Origin: Deltaproteobacteria bacterium
GTDB taxonomy: Bacteria; JAEEML01
Length of the DNA: 63,521 nt
Direction: 5' to 3'
Assembly (NCBI GenBank): GCA_016283195.1
Contig: JAEEML010000089.1
Location: 1 to 63,521, forward strand
Part shown: positions 9,696-60,719 of the stretch, piece after piece
How the letters are laid out: each line of letters starts with the position of its first letter
Position numbering within the stretch: position 1 is the stretch's first letter
Program-made: the position numbers and the translations under genes
The notes under the pieces: model-generated
Told to the model about the DNA's origin: nothing
What the model saw: the letters and a program-made list of their open reading frames with translations, nothing else
The model's database searches: none

Positions 9696-12527
9696 TCAGT
9701 TTTTAACGCAGCGGACAGAAAAAGCCATGACCTTGCTGACTACCCCGGTATCGAATTTATTGCCGCCTAAGTGGTAATATTTAGCCAGACCGCTGCTGTC
9801 TGATTTGCTCCAAAAGTAAGCATCGGAGCCAAAATCACCGTAGATGCCTATATTATGGCTGCCGGCGGGGTAAGCGGCAAAGCCGTAGCTATCGGCGCCC
9901 CAGTTGTCGTAATTGCGCCAGGGGATATTTTTGGCAATAAGGGCAATAAAAGCACTGCCGACGTGAGTATTTGCGAGATCCGCTTCAACAAAGCCGGCGA
10001 GAGTTTGCCACTCTTCTGCAGTGGGCATATGCCAGCCGGTGGGGCAAAAATTATCGGCTGCGGTATCATCCCAGCGGTACAAAAGACCATAAACAGCGTC
10101 ATTGCTCTCTTTGCCGTTGGCGTGGAAATTGGTGCCAATATTGCGGCGATAATTTTCCGCCATCCAAGTTTGGGTGCCGATTTTTACCGCTCTATAGCTG
10201 TTGCCGTCCTGATCTTGCACTGTTTCGGTGATGCTTATATCGCAATTGGGGCCGCCAAAGCCTTCAAAGCATTTTGTGCAGGTGCCATCGCCTAAAAGGC
10301 TGTCGTTGCAATAGCCGTTTTGGCAAGTGCATTTTTGGCAATTTTTGCCGAAATAGCCGCTTTGACACTGGTCGCAGTTGCTGCCTTCCCAGCCGGTATT
10401 GCAAAAAGAGCAGCTACCGTCGCCGGCAAGACCGCCTTTGCAGACGCCATGCTGGCAATTACAAGCTGTACAGGTGGGGCCAAAATGGCCGCTTTCGCAC
10501 TCATCGCAGTTGTCACCGGCAAAACCGGAGAGGCAGCTGGAACAGGTGCCGTCGCCGGAAAGAGTATCCTTGCAATAGCCGTTTTGGCAGGTGCATTTTT
10601 CACAATTTTCGCCAAAATAACCGCTTTGACACTTATTGCAACCCGGCCCGGTTTTGCCTTCGGGGCAGGAATCACAATTCCCGCTGCCGCTCACGCCGTC
10701 ATCACAACCGCCGTTACAGGAACATTTTTCACAAAATGAGCCATAGTAGCCTTTGGAACATTCAAGACAACCGGCACCAACGCGGGAGATGTCACATTCA
10801 GGGCAGACATTTATAACATTATTGAGGCCGCCAAAGCCGTCGTTTTCTGTATTGGGATTTGTTTGGTCATGAGTCCAGTTATCTTTTTCATTATTAATAT
10901 TGTATTTATAAATATGTTTGCCGCTGCTGGGGATAATGATGGTAACTTTCCAGAGAGATCCCTCTTTGGCCATGGGCTTTAGGCAATCGCCCCAGTTTTC
11001 ACAGCCTAAAAAGTCGCCGCCTACGGCAACAGACTCTTCGCCGTTATCGGGATAAGTAAAAGTTATTACATTACAAGGTCCATAAGTGCAGGTGCCGTTA
11101 GGTTGGGCGGTATAGCCGCTTTTGCAACTATCGCAATTTTGGCCGCCAAAACCATCCTGGCAGGTGCAATAACCGCTGCCGGTGAGGCCGTCATTACAGG
11201 TGCCGTTTTCACAAGTGCAGGGGAGGCAATCGGCATCGTAATAGCCTTTGGAACATTCCTGGCAGTTTTTGCCGTTATGGGCGGCGTTACATTCAGGGCA
11301 AACATCAAGAAAACTGTTTATGCCGCCAAAACCATCGCCCGCTTGATTGGGATTATTGTAATCATGCACCCACCAGCGTTCTTCGGGAATAGAGCGGTTA
11401 ATGATAAATTTGTAAAAATGGCGCCCGCTTGAAGGGATAGTGGCAGTGACTTTCCATAGGCCATCGCTATCCGGCACCATGGTTAAGGGACATTCCACCC
11501 AGTTATTACAGCCGAGCCAGTCGCCGGCCAGAGAGACGGTTTGCGGGGTATTGGCACCGCTGTCATAGCTGAAGGTAACTTCATTACATGGCGGAACTCT
11601 AACGCAGAGGCCGTCTTTAAGAGTGTAATCTGTATCGCATGTATCGCAATTTGTCCCGGTATAGCCTTCGTGACAACTATGCCATCTGCATTCGCCGTTG
11701 CCGTCAGCGCCGTCGTCACAGGTGCCGTGCTTACAGGTACATTCCTTACAAGTGGGGCCAAAGAAATTAGCTTTACAGAGGTCGCAATTTGCTCCGGTAT
11801 AGCCTTCGTCACAGAGGCAGACACCAAGGCCGTCTTTGGTGTCATCGCAATGCCCATGGCCGCAATCGGGGCATTTTTCGCAGTTCTCGCCAAAATAGCC
11901 GCTTTGGCAAATGTTGCACTCTGCTCCGCTGAAGCCCTCATCACAAGTGCTGCAGGTGCCATCTCCGGCCATGGTATCGCTGCAGACGCCGCTTGGGCAA
12001 TCGGGGCATTTTTTACACTCGGTACCATAGTAGCCCGGTGCGCATTTTTCGCACCGGCTGCCCATAAAACCCTCCGGGCAGGAACAGGTGCCTTGGCCGG
12101 TAATAGTGTCGGCGCATTTTCCGGCGCCGCAGTTTGGACATTCCTGGCAGGTTGGGCCATAAAAACCGGGCAGGCAGCTATCGCAGGCCGCGCCGCCAAA
12201 GCCGGGATTACAGGTGCAGGAACCGTCACCGGCTTTGGTATCGTTGCAACGCCCCTTGCCGCACTCACCGCATTTTTGGCAAGTTGAGCCAAAGTAGCCG
12301 CTTACACACTCGTCACATTTGGGCCCGGCAAAACCGACAGGACATGATAAGCCATTATTATTGTTGTTATTATTATTGTGCGTGTCGGTATTGGTATCAC
12401 TTGTTGTGGTCTTTCCCGGCTTTTCGGTTGCCGTATTCTCTTTGGGATCCTTATCCTTATCCTTATCTTTGTGACAGGCGCAGAGAGAGAGTGTCACCAG
12501 GCAAGTGAAGCACAAAATTCGTTTCAT
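9696..12527 (-). CDS. Cys-rich surface lipoprotein with ~12 laminin/EGF-like repeats, two CBM48-like modules and a C-terminal FISUMP domain
   Basis: Signal peptide plus lipobox (LSLCAC), KD and poly-N linker. Repeated spacing C-x2-G-F/Y-x-G-x2-C-x2-C-x2-G-Y/F-F/Y-G-x2-C-x2-C-x-x-C-x2-G-x-C-x-D-x3-G-D/S-G-x-C. See the domain features below. Confidence 0.85.
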   Translation of the reverse strand: MKRILCFTCLVTLSLCACHKDKDKDKDPKENTATEKPGKTTTSDTNTDTHNNNNNNNNGLSCPVGFAGPKCDECVSGYFGSTCQKCGECGKGRCNDTKAGDGSCTCNPGFGGAACDSCLPGFYGPTCQECPNCGAGKCADTITGQGTCSCPEGFMGSRCEKCAPGYYGTECKKCPDCPSGVCSDTMAGDGTCSTCDEGFSGAECNICQSGYFGENCEKCPDCGHGHCDDTKDGLGVCLCDEGYTGANCDLCKANFFGPTCKECTCKHGTCDDGADGNGECRWHSCHEGYTGTNCDTCDTDYTLKDGLCVRVPPCNEVTFSYDSGANTPQTVSLAGDWLGCNNWVECPLTMVPDSDGLWKVTATIPSSGRHFYKFIINRSIPEERWWVHDYNNPNQAGDGFGGINSFLDVCPECNAAHNGKNCQECSKGYYDADCLPCTCENGTCNDGLTGSGYCTCQDGFGGQNCDSCKSGYTAQPNGTCTYGPCNVITFTYPDNGEESVAVGGDFLGCENWGDCLKPMAKEGSLWKVTIIIPSSGKHIYKYNINNEKDNWTHDQTNPNTENDGFGGLNNVINVCPECDISRVGAGCLECSKGYYGSFCEKCSCNGGCDDGVSGSGNCDSCPEGKTGPGCNKCQSGYFGENCEKCTCQNGYCKDTLSGDGTCSSCLSGFAGDNCDECESGHFGPTCTACNCQHGVCKGGLAGDGSCSFCNTGWEGSNCDQCQSGYFGKNCQKCTCQNGYCNDSLLGDGTCTKCFEGFGGPNCDISITETVQDQDGNSYRAVKIGTQTWMAENYRRNIGTNFHANGKESNDAVYGLLYRWDDTAADNFCPTGWHMPTAEEWQTLAGFVEADLANTHVGSAFIALIAKNIPWRNYDNWGADSYGFAAYPAGSHNIGIYGDFGSDAYFWSKSDSSGLAKYYHLGGNKFDTGVVSKVMAFSVRCVKN
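9699..10225 (-). other. FISUMP (Fibrobacter succinogenes major paralogous, TIGR02145-type) domain
   Basis: DGNSYRAVKIGTQTWMAENY...YGLLYRW...FCPTGWHMPTAEEWQTL...YGFAAYPAG...AYFWS...FSVRCVK follows the domain consensus closely, as I recall it. Confidence 0.8.
10795..11081 (-). other. CBM48/AMPK-beta-like (glycogen-binding-type) module, copy 2
   Basis: GPCNVITFTYPDNGEESVAVGGDFLGCENWGDCLKPMAKEGSLWKVTIIIPSSGKHIYKYNINNEKDNWTHDQTNPN fits the V-x-L-x-G-D-F-x-x-W...W...L-x-x-G-x-H-x-YKF pattern. Confidence 0.6.
11290..11594 (-). other. CBM48/AMPK-beta-like module, copy 1
   Basis: PPCNEVTFSYDSGANTPQTVSLAGDWLGCNNWVECPLTMVPDSDGLWKVTATIPSSGRHFYKFIINRS...WWVHDYNNPN. Confidence 0.6.
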
Positions 12528-44939: not shown

Positions 44940-44940
44940 T

Positions 44941-45801: not shown

Positions 45802-45822
45802 CGAAAAACTCCGCCGGCGGTT

Positions 45823-46854: not shown

Positions 46855-46901
46855 TAGCCGGAATATGCTGGCCTTTTTGTGCCGGCGAAGCGGAGAAGAC
46901 A

Positions 46902-49900
46902 ATGAAAAGTAGAGCAAAACTACCTTTTTCGTTTATACTTTTTGCTTCCGGATTATTGGCCGGATGTAGCGGTCAAATAGCTGTAAGTGAAGATATTTTC
47001 AATTGCAGTCCCGAGCAACCCAACGGCATTTGTCCCACCGGTGAGGTGTGTGTGAATGGCCATTGCGAAGCCATCTATCAGCCTTGTTCGCCAGCGTATC
47101 CAAATGGTGTGTGTCCGGAAGGCACTTGCGTTAATGGTATTTGTATGACCAGTAGCGGACAGAAGGCCTGCTCCAAAAATAACCCAGGCGGCTATTGCGA
47201 TAATCCGAATGAAGTTTGTCTTAACGGCAAATGTGTGACGCCCAAACCGGAAGAAGCCTGTTCAAGGGATGCTCCCGACGGTTGGTGCGACCCAGGTTAT
47301 TGCTGTACAGGCGGTGCTTGTTGGCCCTGCGGCTGTGTGTGCGGTATCGATTGCCCGGCCGGCCGCTGCAGTAGCGGAGAAATTTGTGATAACGGTGTTT
47401 GTAAACCGGCAGAAACGGTAACCACCAAATGCGGTCCGGGCCAATGTTCCGGCCTTTGTGAATATGCTCAAAATTGTGTCGAAGATATAAAAGGTGATTG
47501 TTCTTGCCAGGCGGCAGCTCCGGCCAGCGGCTGCTCACCAACTAATCTGGCCGGTGATTGCCCGGCCGGGCAGTGGTGTTTAGGCGGCAAATGCCAGGAA
47601 ATTTCCGATGATATGTCTTGCGGTAAAAATTGCGGTAGCGGCATTTGCTCCGGCCATGCTTATTGCGTCGCCGATAGCGAAGGCTGCTCCTGCCAGGAAA
47701 ATGTATCGCCGGATTTAGTGTGCTCGGTTAGTAATCCCACCGGTTTATGTCCTGATGGCCTGGTGTGTAATGCCGGTAGTTGTTCGGTACCTGAATGTAG
47801 CTCACTTACTCCTTGGGGCGATTGCCCGGCCGGGCAGAGCTGCGTAAAAGGGCGCTGCCAGAACGGCGGTGATGAGTGTTCACCCAGCAATCCGAGCGGC
47901 GTTTGCAATGATATCTGCGATGGCGATAACTGTTATGAAGCTGTTTGTAATGCCGGTATTTGCGTGGCCGCTACTTGTAGCAAAGAGCATCTGCGCGGGC
48001 GCTGTGGCGGTGATTGTCTGATTTGCCATGAAGGCTCCTGTATCACCCCGCCCTGTAGTAAAGAATACGCCTGCGGTACCTGCCCCTCCTGCCAAGTTTG
48101 TAACGAAAACGCCGATAGCCCTGATTACGGTACTTGCGGCCCGGCCGCCTGTTCACTGGCCTGCCCTGAGGGTACCTGCTCCAGCGAGCGCGAGATTTGT
48201 ACCTCTTCCGGTTTTTGCGAAGTGCCTGCTTGCAGTGTGATTTACCCTTGGGGTGATTGCCGTGTCGGTATGTATTGTGAGGAAAATAAGGGCCCATGCG
48301 CCGATTTAGCTACCCCTGAAGATTGTGCTACCGATGTGAGTTGTACCTGGAATCAAAAACTTAATGGCTGTGTACGCAAAAATTACGGCCAATGTACACT
48401 GGAAGAGTGCGGCAGTGCTCCGGTCAGCAATCTTATTTGTAACAACCCGGCCTGTGAAGCTCTTGATAGCCAGAATGCCTGTGCCGCCGGTCCGGAATGT
48501 ACCTGGGGGCGCTGTAACGGCGGTGGAGCCTGTCCCACCATTTTAACCGAGGCTGATTGTGCGGCTAATGTCAATTGTTGGTGGCAAAATGGCTGTTTTG
48601 ACGGCCGGATGTGTGTTGAAGGTCATTGTACAACACCGCTTTGTAGCAAGCTCTATCCAAATGGCCGTTGTGATGAAGGATCCACCTGTTATGAAGGTAC
48701 CTGTGTTAAACTCGGTTGCGAAAGCGATAACGATTGCCAGATTCTTTCCGAAAAATGCGAGCAGTTGCCCATCGGTACCACCGGTTGTATAAAACAGCCC
48801 TGTAGCGTGGAAAAACCGGAAGGTGACTGTCTCCTTCTGGGCAATGAATACTTTGGTGAAATCTGTGATGGCGGTAATTGTGTGATACCCAGCTGCTCCG
48901 CTACTTATCCCGGCGGTGCTTGCGGCGATGCCGTTTGCGATGCCGCTCAAAATGAGGCTGCCTGTGCCACTGCCGCGCCGCATTGTCGCTGGCGTCCGGC
49001 TTGTGTGGCCATAGCTGGGCACAACGGGCCTGCTGCCGGTGTAAGCTGCGAAAATAATAGCGATAAATCGAGCTGCGAAGCTGTTTCCGGTTGTAAGTGG
49101 CAAGGTTGTACCGATGGGCGCATCTGTGCCGGCGGTAATTGTCTCCTGCCGCCTTGTAGCGAAAGTGTGCCCGATGGTTCCTGCCCGGCCGGTATGGCCT
49201 GCGAAGCCGGTAAATGTACACTCCAAAATTGCGGCCCGGTCAACCCGGCTGGCCCCTGTGTTTGCTCCGATTTGAACGAAACCGATTGTAAGGACACCAT
49301 TAAGGGCCTTGGCTGTATGTGGGCAGGCGGTGCCTGTGTCAATGATCCGGCAGCCACCGGCTTCCGTATTTGTCTTGGCGGCGTATGTAAACCTTTTGTC
49401 TGCGGTGCCGATTTTGGTATTGCTCCCTGTTTGGACAGCAGTTCTATTTGCGGCTTTACCGGTAGTAGCGGCGATACTTGTAACGTGGGTGACCCCGGCG
49501 GCGGTGACGGTCATGGTTCACCTTGCTGCTTTAAGCCTTCTTGTTGTGATACTTATCCCACCGGTGCTTGCGGCGGCGGCAGTGAGCGTTGCGTCGGCGG
49601 TACTTGTCAAAAACTCCCCTGTAGTCAAAATGCTCCTGATGGTGCCTGCGGGGCCAACCAGGTGTGTGATAACGGCGTTTGCAAGCAGGCCGCTTGCTCG
49701 GCCGAAAATCCCGGCGGCCATTGTGAATGTTCTATTTTGAGTAAAGCCGATTGCGCGGACAGCCAAAAAGGCTTTGGTTGTAAGTGGGATAGCAGTTCGG
49801 CGAGCTGCGTTGATGACCCCGATAGCGCAGATATCCGCAAATGTGCCGGCGGGGTGTGTAAGCCTTACCTCTGCGGCGCTGATTTTGCCGATGCTCCCTG

Positions 49901-52900
49901 TTTAGTGCCCGGTACCGTGTGTGATTTGGTGAAGCACGGCGAAACTTGCGAAACCAGCCAGCTGGTAAATAACGGCGACGGTATTAATACCAATTGTTGC
50001 TATACCCCAGTTTGTTCTACCGATTACCCCGGCGGCTCTTGCCAGCCCGGCTATATTTGTAACGGCGGCACCTGTCAGCAACTGCCTTGTAGCGCTAGTA
50101 ATCCGGCCGGTGCCTGCGGCGCCGGCAAAGTGTGTGTAAACGGCGAATGTCTCTCCGCGCCCTGTAGCCCGGAAGTCCCCAAAGGTACCTGCAATTGCGG
50201 AAGCATTACCCGCCAGGCTGATTGTACCGGCAGCGGCGCGGCTTATGGCTGCAAATGGCAAGGTAATAAATGTATCGACGATCCGGCCTCCAGTGCCTCA
50301 ACTAGCTGTCTAAACGGCACTTGCGCTCCTTATCTCTGCCGCGCCGAGTTCCCCAATGCTCCTTGTACAAGTAGCGGATATGTTTGTAAAATTCCTGACG
50401 CCGGCGAAGTGTGCGAGGGTACTAATAGCGGTTCCAGCGGTGCCTGCTGCGTCAAACCGGCTTGTAGCACTGATTATCCCGGCGGTGCCTGCCCCGACGG
50501 CCAGACCTGTTCCGGCGGTACTTGCGTGCCGCTGCCCTGTAGCCAGGTCAACCAGAACGGTGCCTGTGCCAGCGGCAAAATTTGTAAACAGGGCACCTGT
50601 GTAACGGCTCCTTGTAGTAGTACTGCTCCGAACGGTACTTGCGAAAATGCCGGCCAGCGCTGCTATAACGGTGAGTGCCTTGATTATGTCTGCAGCCGCG
50701 AATTCCCCGGCGCTGCCTGTACTCAGGAGGGGGCAGTTTGTGGCGCTTTGGTCGATCCTACCAAAGAGAGCTGCCTCTCAACCGCTCGCGGTGACGGCTC
50801 TTCAGCAGCCAGCCCCTGCTGCTTTGTACCTACTTGCTCCGCTACTTATAAGAGCGGTACCTGTCAGGATAGCTATATTTGTAAAAACGGCGAGTGTACG
50901 CAGCTGCCCTGTAGCCAGGTTAATAAAAACGGTGCCTGCGCCAGCGGCCAGTATTGTAATAATGGCACCTGTGAAGCCATTGCCTGCTCGCGGGAAAATC
51001 CCACCGGCCCCTGTGCCGATAATACCCAGCGCTGTGTAAACGGAGTTTGCAAAGATTACCTTTGCGGCGCCGATTTCCCGAGCGCTCCCTGCAGTGAAAG
51101 CGGGGCGGTGTGTGGCAAAATTGTTAATAGTGCTAAAGAGCGTTGCCTCAATAATAACGGCAACGGCACTTCTACTAATTGCTGTTTTGAGCCCTGGTGC
51201 TCCGCTCAATATCCCTCCGGCAAGTGCGCGGATGGCTATATTTGCAAGGGTGGCAATTGTGAGCAGTTACCTTGCAGCCCCAGTGCTCCTAATGGTGTTT
51301 GCGGTGCCAATCAGCGCTGTGTCGAAGGTCAATGTGAAGCGGCTCCCTGTAGTAATACCGCTCTAAACGGCACTTGCCTCTGTGCCGACTTAGGGCAGGC
51401 GGCTTGTACCAATCCCGAGAGCGGTTTTGGTTGCAAATGGCAGGGTGGCAAATGTATTGATGACCCGGATTCCTCTTTCTATCAAAAATGTGTTAACGGT
51501 CACTGCATACCATACCTTTGCGGTGCCAATTTTGTTAACGGTCCCTGCGAAAACGGCGGTGCGGTTTGCGGTGTGCCGAGCGGCCTCGATAGCTGCCTTA
51601 ACGGTGCGAATAATCCTTCAGCCGAAAGTCCTTGCTGTTTCATTCCTCACTGCTCCAGTACTTATAAAAACGGCAGTTGTGAAGAAGGCTCCATTTGTAA
51701 AGAGGGCGTTTGTACCAAGCTCCCCTGTAGCGTGGCTGTGCCCGATGGTGCTTGCCCCACCGGCCAGGAGTGTAGTAGCGGCGTTTGCATTAAATCCGTT
51801 TGTAGCCAGAGTGTGCAAGACGGGCGCTGTGAATGTAGTGATATAACTGTCGAAAGTATTTGTACCAATCCCGAGAGCGGCTTTGGCTGCATCTGGCAAG
51901 GCGGCAAATGTATTGATGACCCGGCTTCTACCAACAGCCGCCACTGTTTGAACGGCAATTGTACGCCATATCTTTGCAGCGCCGCTTTCCCGAATGCTCC
52001 TTGTGCCGTAAGTGGTACAGTATGCGGTAAGCCGGCAAATGGCGAGAGCTGCGCCGATGGTGGCAACCCGGCCGTGGCCTGCTGTTATGTGCCTAATTGT
52101 TCCAATACCTACCCGGGCGGCGCTTGTCCGGCCGGCCAGTATTGCAGCGGCGGCCACTGTGTGGCTTATCCCTGTAGCGCAACCAATCCTACCGGCGCCT
52201 GTCCGGCCAGCCAGGTTTGTGAAAATGGCTCCTGTCAGCTGGCAAAATGTAGCAATACCGCTCAAGATGGTACCTGCTATTGCTCTGATATTACCGAGCA
52301 ATCTATCTGCATGAGCAATGTCACCGGCTTTGGCTGCAAATGGCAAAATGGTAAATGTATTGATGACCCGGATTCTGTTGATAGTATGAGTTGCTCTGGC
52401 GGCAGCTGTCAGCCTTACCTCTGCGGCGCTAATTTCCCGAATGCTCCCTGTAGCGAGAGCGGAGCCGTTTGCGGTAAACTTGTTGATAGTACTAAAGAAT
52501 CTTGTGAAAATAATCGCGGCGATGGCGTAAACAGCAACTGCTGCTTTAAGCCTTGGTGCAGTAGCACTTATCCATCCGGCCAGTGTCAGAGCGGCTATGT
52601 GTGCAGCAACGGTACTTGTATGCAACTGCCTTGCAGTGCCGGTAATCCCACCGGTGCCTGTGGTGCCGGCCAATATTGTAATGCCGGTGTTTGCACTCGC
52701 TATGCCTGTTCCGATGAGCACCCCACCGGCACTTGCGCGGCCGGCAAAGTGTGTGAAAAGGATAACGGCGCCGCCCATTATAGCTGTAGTTCGCCAGATT
52801 GTTCGGCCTCTTATCCTTACGGCGAATGTCATGCTGCCGGTACTATTTGTGTAGCCGGTACTTGTGAAGCCACCTGCGGCACCGGTGCCGGGCAAAGTGC

Positions 52901-55900
52901 CACCGGTTATTGTTCCGGCGGTCTCGCCTGTGTCATGACCGCTTGTGCCAATTCTTGCGAAAATGATTACGATTGTGATGGCATTCCCAATAGCGTGGAA
53001 GGTAATGACGCTATTGATACCGATGGCGACGGTATCCCGGATAGCCGTGATATCGATAGCGATAACGATAGCATTCCCGATCGCGTTGAGATAGGACCGG
53101 ATCCGGCCCATCCCTTGGATAGCGATGGCAACGGTACCCCCGATTACCGCCAAACCGATAGCGACGCCGACGGCATTCCCGATAGTGTCGAAGTTGGCCC
53201 CATTCCCACCCAGCCAGTGGATAGTGATGGCGACGGTATTCCCGATTACCGCGATGTCGATAGCGACGGCGATCTTATTTATGACAAATTTGAAGGCCAG
53301 GGCGATGTTGATCATGATGGTATCCCAAATTATTTGGATGATGACAGCGATGGCGATGGCATCCCCGATAGCATCGAAGCGCGGCCAACTCCTTATGATG
53401 ATAGTAGTTTCCACGCCGGTGATATTCCGGCCGACCATGACGGCGACGGCACTTACGACTTCCTCGACCTCGATAGCGATAATGATGGCGTTCTCGATAA
53501 AGACGAAGATGTCAACGGCAACGGTATCATCGATTGCCAAGTCAACGGGCGCGGCGAAGTTGTCTATGTTTGTGAAGAGATTACCAATAAAGATGTCTGT
53601 CAGGCTCATGAATGTACTTGGAACGACGCCGCCAAAGTCTGCGGCGAAACCAGCTGCCCCAATAGCTGTGATGTCAATGCCTTTAATCCCGGCTGTAAAG
53701 ATGATCATGCCCGCTGCGTTCTTTCCGAAACTTCGCGTATTCATGTTGACAGTGATTGCGACGGCATGGGCGACGGCAACGATGGCCTCTTCTTGGCTTG
53801 CGCCGCCGACAATTTGAAGCCCATCAACCTCTTCTACGACCGCGATGCCGATATAGCTATGGCTCTCGAGCAGGCTTTTGACGAAGCCGGTAAATTTAGC
53901 GTCGGCGGCGTGCGCGGTATCTACTTTGATGCCTCTAATAGCAGCGCTGCTTATGGCGTTTCCGGTTTTGTTCTCGCTAAAACTCCGGCCAGCGCGGCCA
54001 TTAACGAGAGCACTCCGCGGCAAAAGGTTATTAAGCAGGAAGAGTACGATCGCGGCCTCTTGTCCTCCTTTAATCCGCAGGTGGTTATTAGCCGCTATAG
54101 CGAGACTTTTGACGGTTTTGCCACTTCCATCTTCCGCTATACTTTGACTAGTAGCGGCTCTGTTTCCAATGCCCGTACCAATGTGCTTAAAGCTCTGGCC
54201 GGCGGCGCCAATGTGGGGACGCCTATCGGTTACGGTCCCAATGCCACGGCATATACCTTAATTATTCAAACTATTTACCGCTATGATGACGGCGGCTCAA
54301 ACGGGCGGGTTATTCTCCTTGGCGCCATTATCCCCACCGCGCTCTATGGTTCCTGCGGGGCTAATAATACCAGCGGTACTTGTAATGCTTTGGCTTCCTG
54401 TAATTTTGTAAATAATAAGTGTGTGGAATATGATTGCCGGGCCATTAATGGAGCAGCTTCATGTAATAGTAATAATCACTGTACCTGGAATGATATTGAC
54501 GAAATTTGCGACAATAAGCAGCTGCCGCTTTTCTATGTGAATAACGTCACTTCCGGTTCCACGGTGACCCAGTTTGGTGATGACCTAGACAAGCTCTGCC
54601 AGAGCTTCAGCCAAAAATCCGGTAAGGTGGACTTCCTCTGGCTGCTCGATTTCTCCAACTCTATTTACCCGGCTCGCCAGCAAATTAAGGACTCTGCCTC
54701 AACATTCTTTGAATTACTGAATAAGACTGAGGCCGACTTCCGTGCAGCCCAGACCGGTGCTCATACTTTTGATGATAACCAATCGCTTTATAGTGGTGTT
54801 AATAATTATTCCGGACAATATTTTACTATGTTCTATGGATATAACACATCAGGTGTAGCAAATAGTCCTTGGCCACCTAACTATGATTTCCGCGCTTGTG
54901 ATTCTTTAAATGGTGTTTGGGTTGGAGCCAATGGTTGTTTGATTGATGAATTTACCGGTTCTTTGGCCTTTAGCGATGACGTAGCTAACCGTGATTATCT
55001 CTGGAATTGTGCTTCGCAAATTAAAGGGCCAGGTTGTACAACTAATTATACATGCACGGCTTGCGGCGGTGCCACCAGCGGTACTGTTTACGCACCGGAA
55101 TGTTATTTTGCCTCCCGTATGGTTTGTAAAAATACTGTCGGTAACTCTGAAACGCCGCTCTTAATGGCTGAATGGGCCATGTACCGCTACTTTGATAAAC
55201 ACATTTGCGCGGATGCCTTTGAAGATGGTTCTCTCCCAACGGCGGAGACTTGTGATACTCGTGAAGGCTGTTTCTGGTCCGGCGGAAAATGTATTCCCAA
55301 TAACTGTGCTTTAGCTACTACCGCAGCGCAGTGCGAGACGATGATAGAAGATAATACCAATGATGGTGTTAAGCTTATCGGTTGTCTCTGGAATAATCAG
55401 ACAAATCAATGTGTGCCAAATTATAGCTGTGAAGCACAGCCAGATGACTTTGCCTGTAGTAATATAACTATTCAGAATACTTGCAATTTACTTGGATGTA
55501 CGTGGAATAGTTGGAGAGGTACATGTTCTGGTACCTTAAATAGAAATACATATAAACGTTGTGAGGACCTAACAACGGAAGCTAATTGCAAACTTGGCGC
55601 GCCTCTTTGCTATTGGAACGGTTCTAGCTGTGGCTGGTCTGTATGTGATAATAATAGTAAGGATCGTCCTATAGCTACATACTCACGTTGTTCAGTGGCT
55701 ACTACTCAAGCCGCCTGTCAGCAAAGCACTACCTGTGTTTGGGAAGACGGAGTTTGCCGGGCTCTGCCACGTGAACGGATGCGTATCGATGCCACTCCCA
55801 TTATAGTGGCTGTTACGGATGAAGAAGAATGTTTCTTAAAAGATAGCGCCGGGCAATATGGCAATGGTAATGGCACTTATACCAAAGCCGCTTGTGGTGG

Positions 55901-58900
55901 TTCACAATCAACAGGTGATAGTAAAGACTTTTACTCTGGTAATGCGGCTGATTCTTATGGCTACAACTGGTGGAATAGTTCTACTAAGGGTTATTATGTA
56001 CGGCAGCAGCGCCAGGAATCTTTCTCGCGCTTCTTCCAATCGCGCGGTACTTTAGTCTTTACCTTAACTGGTGAAAAAGCTACTACTCAAACCAATGGCG
56101 GGTGTCAGCTTGATGGTGATGGAGATGGTAAAATAACAGCAAGTACTTCAGGTAACCTTACTGCTGATATTAATGCTCAGCCGGGTAATGCTCTCATTAG
56201 CGTGGCCGAGAATACCGGTGGTGGTTGGGGTTCTATTTGTGCCACCAACGTTTATCCGGCTGTTGAGAGTATCATCATCACCTCGCTCGCCAAATCCTCC
56301 GCTTACAAACTGGAAGCGGCTATCGACGGCAAAAAGGTGCAGCCTATCGGTTCCACAATCAAAGTGGTGAGCGAAGTTTGCGCCGATGACCCGGCCATGA
56401 CTTATATGAATTACAATGACCGTTGTAACCAGGGTGATGAATATAGCTGCCGGGCCAATGGCTGTGCTTGGAAGAATGGCAGCTGCTCCGGCTGTACCAA
56501 CCGCATCTCTAAAGTCATCCCCATGAGCCGTGAAAACGGCTTTGATTACGATGCCTTAAATAACACTATTACTCTCTTTGGCTCAGCCCGCCCGGCCCGC
56601 GGCCGCGATATTGTGGTTTCCTTCCGTTACTGGATCAATAACCCGCAGCTACCCGAAGGGCCCAGCACCAATACCTGTTCGTGCCCGGGTACTTCCGATT
56701 GTAGCCAGCTTTCCGGCGAAGCAGCTTGTAAAGCAACTGGTACCTGTACCTGGACCGGCCTCGAATGTACCGGCGAATATGCCAGTAACTGCAGCGCTAT
56801 AAATAGCCAATCGGCCTGCACCGCCGACTCGGCCTGTAAGTGGGAAAATGGTACTTGTAAGTTTGCCTGTGCTTGTGCCGGCGGTGCCCAGTGCGGCGGT
56901 CTCTCCTGTGAAAATCAAACGACCGAAAATGGCTGTAATGCCACTATCGGCTGCGTCTGGACTGTGGGTATGTGTATGTCCACCGGTATTTGCAAGATTG
57001 ATCCGGAGTGCGGCCATAGCTGTAATGAGTATCAAACCTGTAACCCCAATACCGGTATTTGCGAATGTAATCTCGATTGTAATAACCAATGCGGCTTGGG
57101 CGAGATTTGTAATTACAACCAGGAATGTAGCGGTATTGGCGGCGAAGCGGCTTGTAGAGCGGTAGAGAGTGAAGGCGTTTGTTTCTGGCGCATAGATTCT
57201 CTTATCTGCGAAGACGGCGATTGCGGCAAATGTTTCTGCGACAAGACCTGCGGTGGTTGCGGCAAAGGGCAGTTGTGCGATAGTGATGAAAATTCCAATA
57301 CTTGCGGCCAGTGCCTCTGCAATACCACTTGTAGCGATACCAATTGCAATTATAACTGCGCGAGTGTTAATAATGCCGCTGATTGTGATGATTGGCCAGG
57401 CTGCTCTTGGGTAAACGGCAGCTGTAAGCGCACCGCCTACATGGAGTGCGATCCCGATCTAAATAGCGCTTCTTGCGGCTTTTGCGTGGTGGATAGCGAT
57501 TGTAGCTTACACCCCTGCGAAGAGGGCGAAATTTGTAACCCCACCACCGGTATGTGCGAATGTGACACCACCTGCGGCGGCGGCTGTAAAGCTGGCTTTA
57601 TTTGCGACAGCACCCCGAGTAGTCCGACCTGTGGTCAGTGCCATTGTGATGAAAACTGTGGTGGTGAGACGCCGCCCAGTGGGCAAAAGTGTGACGACAA
57701 CACCAATAGTGCTACCTGTGGCCTCTTTACCTGTGACCTCACTTGTGGTAGCCCCTGTGGTGCACACACCTATTGTGATGAAGATGAAGATTCGCCAACT
57801 TGTGGCCAGTGTGTTTGTGATACTACCTGTAACCACACAACACCCAACATCGGTATGAAGTGCGATGATAACACCAATAGCGCCACTTGTGGCCAGATTA
57901 TCTGTGGCGCGGCTTGTAACGGCGGCTGCCTGGCTGGCCAGATCTGTAATGAAGCCCTGGGCACTTGTGGTCAGTGTGTCTGCGATACCACTTGCGGTGG
58001 TTCCTGCCCAACCGGCCAAACCTGCGACAGTGACACAGGTAGTGCCACCTGTGGCCAGTGTGTTTGTGACACTACCTGCGGTGGCTCTTGCCCGGCCCAT
58101 TATAATTGCAATAGTGACATCACTAGCCCCACCTGTGGCCAGTGTGAGTGCGATACAAACTGTACCGGTCAGGATATTGGCATTGGTAAGAAGTGCGATG
58201 ATAATCCCTCTAGCCCCACTTGCGGCCAGGTAATTTGCGACACTACCTGTAACGGCGGCTGTGCCAGCGGCCAGAAATGTATCAGCGAACCCGCTAATCC
58301 CAAGTGCGGCCAGTGCGAATGTGATACCACTTGCGGCGGGGTGACTCCGGCAGCCGGTAGTGGCCTTAAGTGCGACAAAGATACCAATAGCCCCACTTGT
58401 GGCCAATTGGTTTGTGACACTACCTGTGGCGGGGCTGCTCCAGGCACCGGCATGAAGTGCGATACCAGCACCACCAGCCCCACTTGCGGCCAAATTGTTT
58501 GTGACACCGAGTGTGGTAACCGCTGCACCGGCGAAAAGGTTTGCGACAGCAGTGCCACCAGCGCCACCTGCGGTACCTGTATTTGCGGTGATGAGTGCGG
58601 CGGTCCTTGCCCGGTTGGCCAAACCTGTAACCCCGCCCTGGGTGATTGCGGCCAGTGCGTTTGCGACACTACTTGCGGCGGCGGTGAATGTCCCACCGGC
58701 CAGAAGTGCGATGATAACAGTAACAGCCCAACCTGCGGCGCCTGTATTTGCGACATCACCTGTCATGGGGCTACACCCGGAGCCGGCCAGAAGTGTGACA
58801 CCAATACTGCCAGTGCTACCTGTGGCCAGATTGTTTGCGATACTTCCTGTGGTAATAGCTGTTCTGGCGGCAAAGTGTGTGACGATAATATTAATAGCGC

Positions 58901-60719
58901 CACTTGCGGCCGCTGTGTTTGCCCGGATGGTGACGATTCCAGCTGTCTTGCCAGCCAAAAATGGCAAGCGGCGAGCGGCAGCGAATGTGGTAAGTGCGTT
59001 TGTGATACCACTTGTAAGAATAGCTGCACCGTGGGCCAGAAGTGCGATGACAATACTGGTAGCGGTACCTGTGGTCAATGTGTCTGCGATACCAATTGTA
59101 CCGGCCAGCCAATAGGTGCCGGGCAAAAGTGCGATAATAACCCCAGCAGTAATACTTGCGGTCAGCCGATTTGCGATACTAACTGTGGTGGCGTAAATTG
59201 CGGTGACGGCAAAGTGTGTGACAGCAATATCAGCAGTGCCACTTGTGGTAAATGTATCTGCGCTGAGGGTAGCGATGACGACTGTCTGCCCGGCCAAAAG
59301 TGGGATAAGAGCCAGGGTGAGTGTGGCGCTTGCGTTTGCGATATCACCTGCGGCGGCGGTTGTCTCTCCGGTCAAAAGTGCGATAGTACCATTGGTAGCC
59401 CCACTTGCGGCCAGTGTATCTGTGACACCACTTGCGGTGGTCCTTGCCCGGATAATTGGGATTGTGATAACGATAAGAATAGCCCGACTTGCGGTCAGTG
59501 TCAGTGTGATACCACTTGTGGCGGCGGCCAATGTACAGGTGGCAAGGTGTGCGATGACAACAGCGCCTCGCAAACTTGCGGCCAGTGTATTTGTGATCAA
59601 ACCTGTGGCGGAGCTTGTCCGGCCGGCCAGAGCTGTGACCAAAACCTGGCCTCACAAACTTGCGGCCAGTGTATTTGTGACACCACTTGCGGCGGAGCCT
59701 GCCCCACCGGCCAGAAATGCGACGGAACTTTGGGCAGCGCTACCTGCGGCCAGTGCCAATGTGATACCACTTGCGGCTTTGCAAATGCGGCCTCTATTCC
59801 GGCCGGCAAGAGCTGCGATAATAATCCGGCCAGCGCTACCTGCGGTCAGCTCATTTGTGATACCACCTGTGGCGGCAAAACTCCGGGTCTGGGTGAAAAA
59901 TGCGATAACAATCCGCTAAGCCCCACTTGCGGTGAGCTTATTTGCGATACCACCTGCGGCGGCGCTTACGGTCTTGGCCTGGTGTGTGACAGCGACCCGG
60001 ATAGCCCCACCTGCGGACAGCTGGTGTGCGACCAGACTTGCGGCGGTTCCTGCCCGGTAGGCCAGATGTGCGACAGCAATTATAACAGTCTCACCTGTGG
60101 TCAGTGCCTCTGTGACACCACCTGTGGAGATGTCACGCCGGCTCCCGGTATGACTTGCGATAGCAACGAGCTGAGTCCCACCTGCGGCCAGATTGTCTGT
60201 GATGTCACTTGCGGCGGTCCGTGTGATACCGGCAGCAGTTGTGATACCAATACGGCGAGCCCCACCTGCGGCCAGTGTGTTTGCGACCAAACATGTGGCG
60301 GCCTCTGTGAAGCCGATTCCAGCAAATACTGCGATAAAGAGCTGAATAGTGCCACCTGCGGTCAGTGCCTCTGCGATGCCACCTGCGGCGGTTCCTGTCC
60401 AACCGGCCAGTGCTGCGATGGCAATGACGAATGCGGCGCTATTCAGGATGAAATGAGCTGTCTGGCCAAAGATGGCTGTATATATCGTGCCGGTATCGGC
60501 TGTGAGTCACTTACCTGCGGCCAGTGTCAGGTTGATCCTACCTGCTGTAACTGCCAAGAATTGCCGAACGGCGCTACCAGCTGCTGTGCTGAGGGTACAG
60601 TTTGTAATCCCAATACCGGCCTTTGCGAAGTCAATGCCGATTGCTGTGCCGGGCGCGAGCCGGCCGAGCAATACCGCTGCAATATCTTCACCGGCGAGTG
60701 TATCTTCATCGCCGGGTGA
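46902..60719 (+). CDS. Giant (4605 aa) Cys-rich surface lipoprotein with nested Cys repeats, TSP3-like Ca loops, a VWA-like domain and ~37 six-Cys tandem units
   Basis: One uninterrupted 13,818-nt ORF. Signal peptide plus lipobox (LLAGC, Cys at 46965-46967). See the repeat features and findings below. No C-terminal TM or sorting signal that I recognise (ends ...CIFIAG). Confidence 0.9.
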   Translation: MKSRAKLPFSFILFASGLLAGCSGQIAVSEDIFNCSPEQPNGICPTGEVCVNGHCEAIYQPCSPAYPNGVCPEGTCVNGICMTSSGQKACSKNNPGGYCDNPNEVCLNGKCVTPKPEEACSRDAPDGWCDPGYCCTGGACWPCGCVCGIDCPAGRCSSGEICDNGVCKPAETVTTKCGPGQCSGLCEYAQNCVEDIKGDCSCQAAAPASGCSPTNLAGDCPAGQWCLGGKCQEISDDMSCGKNCGSGICSGHAYCVADSEGCSCQENVSPDLVCSVSNPTGLCPDGLVCNAGSCSVPECSSLTPWGDCPAGQSCVKGRCQNGGDECSPSNPSGVCNDICDGDNCYEAVCNAGICVAATCSKEHLRGRCGGDCLICHEGSCITPPCSKEYACGTCPSCQVCNENADSPDYGTCGPAACSLACPEGTCSSEREICTSSGFCEVPACSVIYPWGDCRVGMYCEENKGPCADLATPEDCATDVSCTWNQKLNGCVRKNYGQCTLEECGSAPVSNLICNNPACEALDSQNACAAGPECTWGRCNGGGACPTILTEADCAANVNCWWQNGCFDGRMCVEGHCTTPLCSKLYPNGRCDEGSTCYEGTCVKLGCESDNDCQILSEKCEQLPIGTTGCIKQPCSVEKPEGDCLLLGNEYFGEICDGGNCVIPSCSATYPGGACGDAVCDAAQNEAACATAAPHCRWRPACVAIAGHNGPAAGVSCENNSDKSSCEAVSGCKWQGCTDGRICAGGNCLLPPCSESVPDGSCPAGMACEAGKCTLQNCGPVNPAGPCVCSDLNETDCKDTIKGLGCMWAGGACVNDPAATGFRICLGGVCKPFVCGADFGIAPCLDSSSICGFTGSSGDTCNVGDPGGGDGHGSPCCFKPSCCDTYPTGACGGGSERCVGGTCQKLPCSQNAPDGACGANQVCDNGVCKQAACSAENPGGHCECSILSKADCADSQKGFGCKWDSSSASCVDDPDSADIRKCAGGVCKPYLCGADFADAPCLVPGTVCDLVKHGETCETSQLVNNGDGINTNCCYTPVCSTDYPGGSCQPGYICNGGTCQQLPCSASNPAGACGAGKVCVNGECLSAPCSPEVPKGTCNCGSITRQADCTGSGAAYGCKWQGNKCIDDPASSASTSCLNGTCAPYLCRAEFPNAPCTSSGYVCKIPDAGEVCEGTNSGSSGACCVKPACSTDYPGGACPDGQTCSGGTCVPLPCSQVNQNGACASGKICKQGTCVTAPCSSTAPNGTCENAGQRCYNGECLDYVCSREFPGAACTQEGAVCGALVDPTKESCLSTARGDGSSAASPCCFVPTCSATYKSGTCQDSYICKNGECTQLPCSQVNKNGACASGQYCNNGTCEAIACSRENPTGPCADNTQRCVNGVCKDYLCGADFPSAPCSESGAVCGKIVNSAKERCLNNNGNGTSTNCCFEPWCSAQYPSGKCADGYICKGGNCEQLPCSPSAPNGVCGANQRCVEGQCEAAPCSNTALNGTCLCADLGQAACTNPESGFGCKWQGGKCIDDPDSSFYQKCVNGHCIPYLCGANFVNGPCENGGAVCGVPSGLDSCLNGANNPSAESPCCFIPHCSSTYKNGSCEEGSICKEGVCTKLPCSVAVPDGACPTGQECSSGVCIKSVCSQSVQDGRCECSDITVESICTNPESGFGCIWQGGKCIDDPASTNSRHCLNGNCTPYLCSAAFPNAPCAVSGTVCGKPANGESCADGGNPAVACCYVPNCSNTYPGGACPAGQYCSGGHCVAYPCSATNPTGACPASQVCENGSCQLAKCSNTAQDGTCYCSDITEQSICMSNVTGFGCKWQNGKCIDDPDSVDSMSCSGGSCQPYLCGANFPNAPCSESGAVCGKLVDSTKESCENNRGDGVNSNCCFKPWCSSTYPSGQCQSGYVCSNGTCMQLPCSAGNPTGACGAGQYCNAGVCTRYACSDEHPTGTCAAGKVCEKDNGAAHYSCSSPDCSASYPYGECHAAGTICVAGTCEATCGTGAGQSATGYCSGGLACVMTACANSCENDYDCDGIPNSVEGNDAIDTDGDGIPDSRDIDSDNDSIPDRVEIGPDPAHPLDSDGNGTPDYRQTDSDADGIPDSVEVGPIPTQPVDSDGDGIPDYRDVDSDGDLIYDKFEGQGDVDHDGIPNYLDDDSDGDGIPDSIEARPTPYDDSSFHAGDIPADHDGDGTYDFLDLDSDNDGVLDKDEDVNGNGIIDCQVNGRGEVVYVCEEITNKDVCQAHECTWNDAAKVCGETSCPNSCDVNAFNPGCKDDHARCVLSETSRIHVDSDCDGMGDGNDGLFLACAADNLKPINLFYDRDADIAMALEQAFDEAGKFSVGGVRGIYFDASNSSAAYGVSGFVLAKTPASAAINESTPRQKVIKQEEYDRGLLSSFNPQVVISRYSETFDGFATSIFRYTLTSSGSVSNARTNVLKALAGGANVGTPIGYGPNATAYTLIIQTIYRYDDGGSNGRVILLGAIIPTALYGSCGANNTSGTCNALASCNFVNNKCVEYDCRAINGAASCNSNNHCTWNDIDEICDNKQLPLFYVNNVTSGSTVTQFGDDLDKLCQSFSQKSGKVDFLWLLDFSNSIYPARQQIKDSASTFFELLNKTEADFRAAQTGAHTFDDNQSLYSGVNNYSGQYFTMFYGYNTSGVANSPWPPNYDFRACDSLNGVWVGANGCLIDEFTGSLAFSDDVANRDYLWNCASQIKGPGCTTNYTCTACGGATSGTVYAPECYFASRMVCKNTVGNSETPLLMAEWAMYRYFDKHICADAFEDGSLPTAETCDTREGCFWSGGKCIPNNCALATTAAQCETMIEDNTNDGVKLIGCLWNNQTNQCVPNYSCEAQPDDFACSNITIQNTCNLLGCTWNSWRGTCSGTLNRNTYKRCEDLTTEANCKLGAPLCYWNGSSCGWSVCDNNSKDRPIATYSRCSVATTQAACQQSTTCVWEDGVCRALPRERMRIDATPIIVAVTDEEECFLKDSAGQYGNGNGTYTKAACGGSQSTGDSKDFYSGNAADSYGYNWWNSSTKGYYVRQQRQESFSRFFQSRGTLVFTLTGEKATTQTNGGCQLDGDGDGKITASTSGNLTADINAQPGNALISVAENTGGGWGSICATNVYPAVESIIITSLAKSSAYKLEAAIDGKKVQPIGSTIKVVSEVCADDPAMTYMNYNDRCNQGDEYSCRANGCAWKNGSCSGCTNRISKVIPMSRENGFDYDALNNTITLFGSARPARGRDIVVSFRYWINNPQLPEGPSTNTCSCPGTSDCSQLSGEAACKATGTCTWTGLECTGEYASNCSAINSQSACTADSACKWENGTCKFACACAGGAQCGGLSCENQTTENGCNATIGCVWTVGMCMSTGICKIDPECGHSCNEYQTCNPNTGICECNLDCNNQCGLGEICNYNQECSGIGGEAACRAVESEGVCFWRIDSLICEDGDCGKCFCDKTCGGCGKGQLCDSDENSNTCGQCLCNTTCSDTNCNYNCASVNNAADCDDWPGCSWVNGSCKRTAYMECDPDLNSASCGFCVVDSDCSLHPCEEGEICNPTTGMCECDTTCGGGCKAGFICDSTPSSPTCGQCHCDENCGGETPPSGQKCDDNTNSATCGLFTCDLTCGSPCGAHTYCDEDEDSPTCGQCVCDTTCNHTTPNIGMKCDDNTNSATCGQIICGAACNGGCLAGQICNEALGTCGQCVCDTTCGGSCPTGQTCDSDTGSATCGQCVCDTTCGGSCPAHYNCNSDITSPTCGQCECDTNCTGQDIGIGKKCDDNPSSPTCGQVICDTTCNGGCASGQKCISEPANPKCGQCECDTTCGGVTPAAGSGLKCDKDTNSPTCGQLVCDTTCGGAAPGTGMKCDTSTTSPTCGQIVCDTECGNRCTGEKVCDSSATSATCGTCICGDECGGPCPVGQTCNPALGDCGQCVCDTTCGGGECPTGQKCDDNSNSPTCGACICDITCHGATPGAGQKCDTNTASATCGQIVCDTSCGNSCSGGKVCDDNINSATCGRCVCPDGDDSSCLASQKWQAASGSECGKCVCDTTCKNSCTVGQKCDDNTGSGTCGQCVCDTNCTGQPIGAGQKCDNNPSSNTCGQPICDTNCGGVNCGDGKVCDSNISSATCGKCICAEGSDDDCLPGQKWDKSQGECGACVCDITCGGGCLSGQKCDSTIGSPTCGQCICDTTCGGPCPDNWDCDNDKNSPTCGQCQCDTTCGGGQCTGGKVCDDNSASQTCGQCICDQTCGGACPAGQSCDQNLASQTCGQCICDTTCGGACPTGQKCDGTLGSATCGQCQCDTTCGFANAASIPAGKSCDNNPASATCGQLICDTTCGGKTPGLGEKCDNNPLSPTCGELICDTTCGGAYGLGLVCDSDPDSPTCGQLVCDQTCGGSCPVGQMCDSNYNSLTCGQCLCDTTCGDVTPAPGMTCDSNELSPTCGQIVCDVTCGGPCDTGSSCDTNTASPTCGQCVCDQTCGGLCEADSSKYCDKELNSATCGQCLCDATCGGSCPTGQCCDGNDECGAIQDEMSCLAKDGCIYRAGIGCESLTCGQCQVDPTCCNCQELPNGATSCCAEGTVCNPNTGLCEVNADCCAGREPAEQYRCNIFTGECIFIAG
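49149..52880 (+). repeat. Eight ~115-135-aa super-repeats inside the giant gene
   Basis: Each unit contains PCS..xPxGxC, a C-x-W module (GFGCKWQGGKCIDDP), P-Y-L-C-G-A-x-F-P-N-A-P-C, CCF-x-P-x-CS..YP.G.C and QLPCS. The YLCGA-type landmark occurs 8 times: FVCGADFGIAPC, YLCGADFADAPC, YLCRAEFPNAPC, YVCSREFPGAAC, YLCGADFPSAPC, YLCGANFVNGPC, YLCSAAFPNAPC, YLCGANFPNAPC. Confidence 0.85.
52966..53540 (+). repeat. About 12 thrombospondin-type-3-like D-x-D-x-D-G-x-x-D calcium-binding loops
   Basis: DTDGDGIPDSRD, DSDNDSIPDRVE, DSDGNGTPDYRQ, DSDADGIPDSVE, DSDGDGIPDYRD, DSDGDLIYDKFE, DVDHDGIPNYLD, DSDGDGIPDSIE, DHDGDGTYDFLD, DSDNDGVLDKDE and others. Confidence 0.8.
57222..60430 (+). repeat. About 37 tandem 26-32-aa six-Cys units (consensus T-C-G-Q-C-x-C-D-T-T-C-G-G-x-C-P-x-G-Q-x-C-D-x4-S-x)
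   Basis: Counted by hand from the translation. Units run head to tail in frame with small length variation. One C-x-W module interrupts unit 2. Confidence 0.85.

Follow-up and report, generated by a model that had tools for sequence, protein, structure and literature searches.

Four genes for cysteine-rich lipoproteins, here called A, B, C and D, together occupy 22,935 nt, or 36.1%, of the 63,521-nt stretch analysed here (contig JAEEML010000089.1 of a Deltaproteobacteria bacterium; hereafter the window). An original prediction, made from the letters of this DNA, had taken them for a single paralogous family of four members; that reading fails, as homology joins A and C alone, and B and D are linked to none of the others. 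What all four have in common is the type of anchor and a Cys-rich composition, which as judged from their sequences do not reflect common descent. The explanation that best combines the results, and that we consider likely, is that they are four independently built, disulfide-stabilised lipoproteins of the cell envelope: A and C an alpha-glucan pair, D an adhesin and B an exposed protein. Gene models, domain content, homology relations and synteny are established by the analysis; what we infer is that the proteins are exposed at the surface, which ligands they bind, that D is an adhesin and how the disulfides are formed.

9696..12527, minus strand: gene A, a 943-aa lipoprotein with 104 Cys (11.0%)
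12474..12527, minus strand: signal peptide and lipobox of A, MKRILCFTCLVTLSLCAC, Cys18
28305..31745, plus strand: gene B, a 1,146-aa lipoprotein with 106 Cys (9.2%)
39744..42587, plus strand: gene C, a 947-aa lipoprotein with 57 Cys (6.0%)
46902..60719, plus strand: gene D, a 4,605-aa lipoprotein with 608 Cys (13.2%)

The four open reading frames (ORFs) and their combined length, as originally predicted, were both reproduced; for B, the ORF list gives a TTG start at 28287, and the ATG at 28305 agrees with the start of its ortholog. The proteins hold 875 Cys between them, those of C all lying within its first ~400 residues, and Cys accounts for 1.21% of the 11,906 residues encoded by the other 31 genes of the window. 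The lipobox was tested as a pattern (an N-terminal basic region, a hydrophobic core and [LVI][ASTVI][GAS]C within ~40 residues). Canonical boxes are present in C (LAAC, Cys28) and D (LAGC, Cys22), while A (LCAC, Cys18) and B (CLGC) carry near-canonical ones, each off at one position; the B ortholog, protein P0015, has VLGC. By this pattern match all four have the features of bacterial lipoproteins, as had been proposed. The view of all four as extracytoplasmic and of disulfide type is also supported. The proteins would be exposed at the surface, and their oxidative folding would fall to a Dsb or VKOR system encoded elsewhere; the lack of a Dsb-type oxidoreductase in the window was correctly noted, since we found no Dsb or thioredoxin family among its genes and no thioredoxin-type CxxC motif ([WF]C[GPA][PHYT]C) in its ORFs of at least 60 aa.

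Long antisense ORFs within A and D (up to 801 aa) were rejected as genes, being A/T/G/I-rich, low-complexity mirror-frame shadows of the Cys/Gly-rich sense frame:

51618-54023, 57507-59642, 48543-49514 and 11483-12292, all minus strand: low-complexity antisense shadow ORFs in D and A

To relate the four proteins, we used hidden Markov models (HMMs), one per module type, together with BLASTP at 1e-3 and hhalign. The sole BLASTP link is between A and C (2e-48 at 36% identity across 380 aa, plus a further segment at 3e-38), and hhalign of the A and C EGF units gives 94.5% (E 8e-8), whereas any pair that includes B or D reaches 6.4% at most. HMMs of B or D modules matched the other three proteins only with independent E-values above 0.01, cross-matches being confined to A and C, and in all fetched loci each module HMM recurs solely in the orthologous loci of its own protein. 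The Cys frameworks are these: an 8-Cys laminin-type EGF unit with spacing 8,2,8,2,2,4,9,1 in A; classical EGF-like units in C; a ~80-aa, 11-Cys unit in six copies in B; and, in D, a 4-Cys ~25-aa unit (C-x8-C-x5-C-x4-C) in the N-terminal array, a C-x8-C-x5-C-x-W-x4-C unit in the centre and a 6-Cys unit (CDTTCGGxCPxGQxCD....S.TCGQC) in the C-terminal array. In profile comparisons, module-level homology is absent for B and D and present for A and C; the proposal that two of the proteins have in common an EGF-like unit and a CBM48-like module holds for this pair, whose three CBM copies (two in A, one in C) are 48-54% identical to each other.

The domains that define the A/C pair are as follows.

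11598..12344, minus strand: first array of 8-Cys laminin-type EGF units in A, aa 62-310, spacing 8,2,8,2,2,4,9,1
11292..11612, minus strand: CBM48/CBM20-like module 1 of A, aa 306-412 (PF00686, CBM_20, 25.5 bits, cutoff 23.3)
10794..11093, minus strand: CBM48-like module 2 of A, aa 479-578 (PF16561, AMPK1_CBM, 35.4 bits, cutoff 26.8)
9699..10214, minus strand: C-terminal FISUMP domain (Fib_succ_major) of A, aa 772-943 (TIGR02145, 120.7 bits)
40458..40763, plus strand: CBM48-like module of C, aa 239-340, 52-54% identical to the A copies
40941..42584, plus strand: GH13 catalytic domain of C (PF00128, 118 bits; DYVMNH, GYRLDAIKH, VGE, FLGNHD)

C is composed of EGF-like units (classical EGF, PF00008, 22.7 bits vs a cutoff of 21.5), one CBM48-like module and a GH13 alpha-amylase catalytic domain, in which conserved regions I-IV and the Asp/Glu/Asp triad align to CGTase 1cyg and to alpha-amylase structures; an ortholog, P0042, is 66% identical and has matching architecture. 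The order in A is laminin-type EGF arrays, CBM48-like module 1, EGF, CBM48-like module 2, an EGF array and FISUMP. Its ~13 laminin-type EGF units (PF00053, 92.9 bits vs a cutoff of 21) keep a regular 8-Cys spacing, and its FISUMP domain is full-length (model positions 5-176 of 176; cutoff 41.65 bits). All CBM copies carry an extra Cys pair (GCxNWxxC). In the PDB the module matches the glucoamylase starch-binding domain (best, 8e-4), LSF1 and branching enzyme, and the alignment to the glucoamylase domain conserves the GDW, YKF and W-x-DPN positions, which we take to be its site-1 starch-binding residues (1AC0). The CBM48-like HMM found no match in the other A-like loci, and the CBM48/EGF cassette is therefore specific to A and C.

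Based on these features, A and C may be viewed as a functional and evolutionary pair sharing this cassette. C would most likely be an enzyme tethered to the membrane, binding and cleaving alpha-glucan of the starch or glycogen type. A, without a catalytic domain, would use its laminin-type EGF units as rods that present the two CBM48/20-like modules together with a lectin-like FISUMP domain, and is most likely a non-catalytic protein for glycan capture or adhesion; the probable ligand of the CBM modules in both is an alpha-glucan. Bacteroides starch utilisation combines the surface amylase SusG with the binding proteins SusE/SusF, and MalS is a periplasmic amylase. Comparably, C is a lipid-anchored GH13 amylase with a starch-binding module, and A a separate non-catalytic lipoprotein with tandem modules of starch-binding type. 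We liken the A/C pairing to SusG and SusE/F in function, not in homology. The modules of A and C are of the CBM48/20-like kind instead of CBM58 or SusE/F-type, EGF-type disulfide spacers occur in both proteins, and the two genes are separated by 27 kb and have no SusC/D genes next to them.

No full-length ortholog of A was found. Bacterial lipoproteins with EGF and FISUMP domains and no CBM module occur on metagenome contigs L010-L016, and those on L012 and L015 repeat the EGF-FISUMP unit. A itself belongs to this family of laminin-EGF and FISUMP lipoproteins, a true paralogous family that includes neither B nor D. Like other FISUMP (Fibrobacter succinogenes major paralogous domain, TIGR02145/PF09603) lipoproteins, A has a full-length FISUMP domain behind a lipoprotein signal; it differs by the presence of its two CBM48-like modules and its ~13 laminin-type EGF units. 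In FCB bacteria, diversity-generating retroelements have been reported to target FISUMP as a variable ligand-binding domain (PMC11661182). The closest named relatives of the A EGF units are eukaryotic (oomycete TKL receptor kinases, stabilin-2, PEAR1 and SCARF1, also called SREC), with the same 8-Cys unit and 33-46% identity over ~250 aa; in A, however, these units sit in a bacterial lipoprotein, fused to CBM48 and FISUMP.

D is by far the largest of the four and divides into the following regions.

46968..52979, plus strand: N-terminal array of 4-Cys ~25-aa units, including seven ~121-157-aa super-repeats
49527-52541, plus strand: super-repeats, aa 876-1880, seven copies of 121-157 aa, 50-53% identical
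52980..53531, plus strand: thrombospondin type-3 (TSP3) calcium-binding repeats (PF02412, 37.5 bits, cutoff 25)
53532..56639, plus strand: conserved centre, aa 2211-3246, which runs colinear with the VWA/betaI portion of CglD and into which C-x8-C-x5-C-x-W-x4-C modules are inserted
54648..54662, plus strand: putative MIDAS (metal-ion-dependent adhesion site), DFSNS (DxSxS), aa 2583-2587, with D, S and S invariant in 9 of 9 family members
56889..60716, plus strand: C-terminal array of ~28-aa units, CDTTCGGxCPxGQxCDxxxxSxTCGQC

Among 5.8 billion proteins we found ~10 homologs of D (P0002-P0011), 2,543-3,172 aa long, 31-34% identical and all unannotated; five further loci (L004-L008) came from an alignment scan of GTDB representative genomes with the central domain, in metagenome-assembled genomes (MAGs) labelled Myxococcota, Deltaproteobacteria or Bdellovibrionales. 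The homologs follow the order seen in D: a lipobox (in nine of the nine with a complete N-terminus), an array of ~25-aa Cys units, TSP3 repeats, a conserved centre of ~900-1,200 aa and an array of CGQCxCDTTCGG units. D exceeds its relatives by 1,400-2,000 aa, partly through the super-repeats, which were not found in the homologs and are private to the D of the window. A PSI-like GFGCKWQGGKC insert is present in five of the seven super-repeat copies and missing in two. An AlphaFold2 (AF2) model of one super-repeat, of reasonable confidence (pLDDT 76.6), is a string of two-stranded beta-hairpin mini-modules forming a rod; Foldseek against the PDB returned nothing significant for it, the best hits having E ~1 (a TNFR cysteine-rich domain, SCARF1 EGF and the insulin-receptor Cys-rich region). 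Tandem Repeats Finder detected no DNA-level repeats in D, which indicates that its arrays are old rather than assembly artefacts; recent expansion and misassembly were rejected on this ground.

Ten DxDxD[GND] motifs fall within aa 2022-2194 of D. Downstream of DFSNS, the blocks VAVVLSDEEE, FxVFxIVGD and GGGWGSIC are conserved, and DxSxS, DEEE and GGGWGSIC are invariant across the family; DxSxS followed by such blocks has the appearance of the sequence pattern of a VWA domain. The NCBIfam CglD model (NF033765) matches nine of the nine aligned family members; the matches, the best at 2.5e-24, run colinearly along model positions 612-966. The lipoprotein CglD of Myxococcus xanthus is described as Cys-rich, exposed at the surface and beta-integrin/COMP-like, with a MIDAS motif of importance for gliding (bioRxiv 10.1101/2023.10.19.562135). 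D resembles it in being a lipoprotein with TSP3/COMP-type DxDxDG repeats, a DxSxS MIDAS motif, a Cys-rich stalk and a central domain colinear in sequence with that part of the model, and differs in size (4,605 aa vs 1,130) and Cys content (13.2% vs 4.1%), in the two long unclassified repeat arrays that flank its head, in a VWA-like domain split by ~300 aa of Cys modules, in a score far under the equivalog cutoff, in having no gliding genes nearby and in belonging to an unannotated family (P0002-P0011, L004-L008).

D thus appears to belong, as a giant member, to a rare family of lipoproteins with distant homology to CglD, the beta-integrin/COMP-like adhesin of Myxococcus. Its TSP3 calcium repeats and a putative MIDAS-bearing, VWA-like head would be held between two long rods of disulfide-stapled beta-hairpin modules, and the protein would most likely be a calcium- and metal-dependent adhesin positioned far from the membrane; the adhesin role is thus a probable one. 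We read D as working like CglD but not as a CglD equivalog. Separately, D aa ~2350-2500 (53950-54400), the one stretch of the central-domain model with moderate confidence (pLDDT 60-80), tentatively resembles the Mog1/PsbP/LpqN alpha/beta sandwiches (3lyd, 4ol4 and 6e5d; TM ~0.43-0.5 on the target).

B is a near-orphan, in which a ~125-aa N-terminal domain is followed by a region with MopE-type motifs and by six ~80-aa, 11-Cys modules.

28752..29504, plus strand: MopE-type CDGxDNxCD / DxDGDG region of B, aa 150-400 (PF11617, sub-threshold)
30147..31643, plus strand: six tandem ~80-aa Cys modules of B, aa 615-1113

Across 5.8 billion proteins and 1.84 billion representatives, P0015 (893 aa, 38% identity) is the only full-length homolog of B, to which P0077 adds an N-terminal fragment. 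PF11617 scores 24.9 bits over aa 150-420, vs a cutoff of 27 (E 2.5e-5), and aa 311-393 are matched by P0066 and P0070, which are strong PF11617 proteins. The last modules (aa ~1011-1120) match unannotated proteins in which a related Cys unit of ~70-80 aa occurs 11-22 times; repeat units related to the ~80-aa modules occur in the unannotated P0067-P0073. B resembles MopE-type "putative metal-binding motif" proteins (PF11617) in that its aa 311-393 are homologous to proteins with 7-10 strong PF11617 repeats, and differs in lying just under the cutoff and in having most of its length, the N-terminal domain and six 80-aa modules, outside PF11617. Searches of PDB sequences with B, with the D central profile and with the D N- and C-terminal arrays gave nothing meaningful, and Pfam, run with B and D in full length and with sub-segments of the arrays, gave nothing except TSP_3 and the sub-threshold MopE match. 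B evolves much faster than its neighbours: B and P0015 are 38% identical, and the flanking genes 64-80% identical between the window and the sister contig described below. In codon usage B stands apart from its neighbours, with a relative synonymous codon usage (RSCU) r of 0.46 and a third-position GC content (GC3) of 0.30, dropping to 0.19 at the 3' end, where the neighbours have 0.53; its ortholog on the sister contig (8906-11587) is likewise AT3-rich, at 0.38. This bias may reflect an ancient foreign origin, low expression or repeat-driven mutation. Our best guess for B is an exposed protein, most likely with a structural or binding role, whose constraint is diversifying or relaxed.

Synteny with the window is seen in an independent sister contig, L009, which carries orthologs of B and D with the same flanking genes. 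The D ortholog is 77% identical over the 480 aa present, and the alignment of 46815-48298 in the window to 12981-14504 in L009 includes ~85 conserved bp upstream of D. In L009 this ortholog begins 1.5 kb after the B block, whereas in the window a 13.6-kb block (33199-46814) intervenes, containing the amylase gene C and genes for ArsR, a P-type ATPase, an FAD protein, HAD, sigma and anti-sigma factors, a lipoprotein, AmiA, a histidine kinase, DUF1295 and rfbA. The description of the four genes as dispersed is accurate for the window and does not extend to L009; because the orthologs adjoin within 1.5 kb there, dispersal is a property of the arrangement of this genome and not of the lineage. The syntenic orthologs show that B and D are resident rather than part of a recent island. 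A, C and D use codons as their neighbours do (RSCU r 0.85-0.90; GC3 0.51-0.54 vs 0.53). Both results agree with the long residency that had been suggested, as does annotation with the interleaving among housekeeping genes: the neighbours are chromosomal genes (asnA, dnaJ, ppdK, plsB, rplC, a ClpB-like ATPase, an S13 peptidase, a GT2 glycosyltransferase, a P-type ATPase, an extracytoplasmic function (ECF) sigma/anti-sigma pair and rfbA).

The housekeeping 5-kb windows are uniform in tetranucleotide composition (r 0.88-0.97). In this measure the window correlates with L009 at 0.93, with L011 at 0.90 and with a Fibrobacter locus at 0.64, and with the high-GC Myxococcota-type MAGs of the D relatives at 0.03-0.34. 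An identical DnaJ is encoded on a 2-kb contig of GCA_016295295.1. Only the right end stands out:

62044-63521: trans-sulfuration pyridoxal phosphate (PLP) enzyme and the start of a PALP/cysteine-synthase gene, the Fibrobacter-like right end

Against Fibrobacter sp. (GCA_045589475.1) this segment shows 84.9% nucleotide and 95% amino-acid identity, and its tetranucleotide r is 0.83 to the Fibrobacter locus and 0.56 to the rest of the window; those other housekeeping proteins whose 90% clusters were inspected had no named Fibrobacter relative there and were mostly singletons. It is either a horizontal transfer or a chimeric contig end, and the four genes are unaffected by the choice. A chimeric origin, which the original prediction had named as a danger to its own reading, therefore concerns the last 1.5 kb alone and lies outside A-D.

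Several observations weigh against the combined explanation. For D, the central domain scores 48.9 bits and the full-length protein 29.3 bits against a CglD equivalog cutoff of 400, and even the best family member (E 2.5e-24) is a partial match; Pfam VWA models match no member of the family, and the AF2 model of the D centre, from a nine-sequence alignment, is poor (mean pLDDT 40.7), with no VWA or integrin match by Foldseek on that model. For C, the CBM module taken alone falls under its Pfam cutoff (20.6 vs 26.8 bits), and a Lys at +2 after the lipid Cys may, we presume, mean retention in the inner membrane, as in Myxococcus. B is without functional annotation, Pfam on the full-length protein giving nothing above cutoff. 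Inference from the lineage is weak too, as the hints are split between FCB/Fibrobacterota (FISUMP, the tetranucleotide r of 0.64 and the right-end gene) and Myxococcota/Bdellovibrionota (the taxa carrying D homologs and the links to CglD and MopE).

The original idea, that A-D are diverged paralogs of one lineage-specific Cys-rich lipoprotein family, draws on the signal peptide, lipobox and 6-13% Cys of all four, on the genuine relationship of A and C, and on the weak similarity between the modules of D itself (hhalign 60-71%), which implies that short Cys modules can diverge far. It is already largely refuted, and we hold it to be very improbable: the four Cys frameworks differ, modules of B and D show no cross-match at the thresholds given above, each module type is confined to its own orthologous loci, and the non-repeat domains (FISUMP, GH13, the CglD-like head and the B N-terminal domain) are unrelated. 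We judge it unlikely, though less so, that A and C are not alpha-glucan specialists at all, the CBM48-like module being a spacer or a binder of some other ligand and A a FISUMP/EGF adhesin for contact with host or prey. The extra Cys pair is unseen in classical CBM20/48, the module is missing from the A-like relatives, the EGF arrays are eukaryote-like and FISUMP has been reported as a variable, ligand-binding retroelement target (PMC11661182); however, C and its ortholog join the module to an intact GH13 amylase, and it matches starch- and glycogen-binding domains in both Pfam and the PDB. The presumed site-1 starch-binding residues of the glucoamylase domain also align with it.

D could instead be a functional ortholog of CglD, a focal-adhesion anchor working with the Glt/Agl gliding-motility machine; it has the lipoprotein anchor, TSP3 repeats, MIDAS motif and Cys-rich stalks described for CglD, which is the sole named NCBIfam family matching it. 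We find this improbable, since the score of 48.9 bits stands against an equivalog cutoff of 400, D has four times the length of CglD and two repeat arrays more, the window and loci L002, L003 and L009 contain no glt, agl or cglB-like genes, and the host may not be a myxobacterium. Finally, the eukaryote-style domains (laminin EGF, TSP3, VWA) might mark a chimeric or contaminated contig rather than one bacterial genome, as the best matches of the A EGF units among named proteins (oomycete kinases, stabilin, PEAR1/SREC) and the last 1.5 kb, 85% nucleotide-identical and compositionally nearer to Fibrobacter, could suggest. This we regard as scarcely credible, given the dense bacterial gene organisation with lipoboxes, the uniform tetranucleotide composition, the codons that A, C and D share with their neighbours, the independent L009, where B and D have orthologs amid matching flanking genes, and the bacterial A-like FISUMP lipoproteins in L012 and L015. 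Eukaryotic contamination was rejected on the gene organisation, the composition and the sister contig. Four independently built lipoproteins in one bacterial genome remain the reading we prefer.

Other features of the window are listed with their neighbours. The ECF sigma factor and its ZAS-type anti-sigma factor are divergent from C, a regulatory link being suggested by context only:

38174..39633, minus strand: ECF sigma factor and ZAS-type anti-sigma factor

The sigma factor is SigH/SigR-like, and the anti-sigma factor has HAESCPEC and a weak RsrA-like match (1.9e-10); the pair is a possible regulator of thiol or envelope stress, and any link to the Cys-rich proteins is speculative. A 103-aa ORF at 24783-25094 (minus strand), with the lipobox LSLAAC, nine Cys and no family match, may be a fifth, small Cys-rich lipoprotein, and L009 encodes a further lipoprotein (1679-2428; 250 aa, 10% Cys). 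At 33360-35821 (plus strand), a small ArsR/SmtB-like ORF precedes a P-type ATPase with a His/Cys-rich N-terminal tract, MNHHEHEHKEGHSCCHHHGHEHGACHCHSHEHEHEE, probably a metal-efflux operon. The ribosomal protein L3 gene (16412-17149, minus strand; TIGR03625, 241 bits) stands alone between plsB and a DUF6909 gene, outside an S10-type ribosomal operon, and has an apparent N-terminal extension. A tRNA-Gly(CCC) gene (24096-24170, plus strand) is adjoined by a 141-aa membrane ORF, a SecG-like candidate (24194-24619, plus strand), and a PD-(D/E)XK family transposase-like gene lies near the left end (1011-1784, minus strand).

A-D are variants and combinations of known kinds and form no new category. 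What is new here is the rare CglD-like giant family of D with its two unclassified repeat rods, the disulfide-braced CBM48 cassette of A and C, and the near-orphan B. The results correct a tempting misreading, as shared Cys richness and lipid anchoring are in this case not a sign of common descent. With 875 Cys in four proteins, the window offers a good test case for the folding of extremely disulfide-dense proteins in a Gram-negative envelope. The GH13 amylase C and its non-catalytic partner A, with their common disulfide-braced CBM48-like cassette, are directly testable by binding assays. D represents a rare, unannotated family of very large, CglD-like putative adhesins and extends the integrin-like theme of Myxococcus. 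We entertain, as a tentative idea that is more doubtful than probable, that D and its ~15 relatives (P0002-P0011, L004-L008 and the L009 ortholog) make up an undescribed clade of giant bacterial integrin/COMP-like adhesins, with a MIDAS head on two new types of disulfide-stapled beta-hairpin rod. If this were true, then together with the eukaryote-like laminin-EGF arrays of A it would mean that a lineage so far seen in metagenomes only has assembled an extracellular-matrix-style surface largely from modules without a family assignment.

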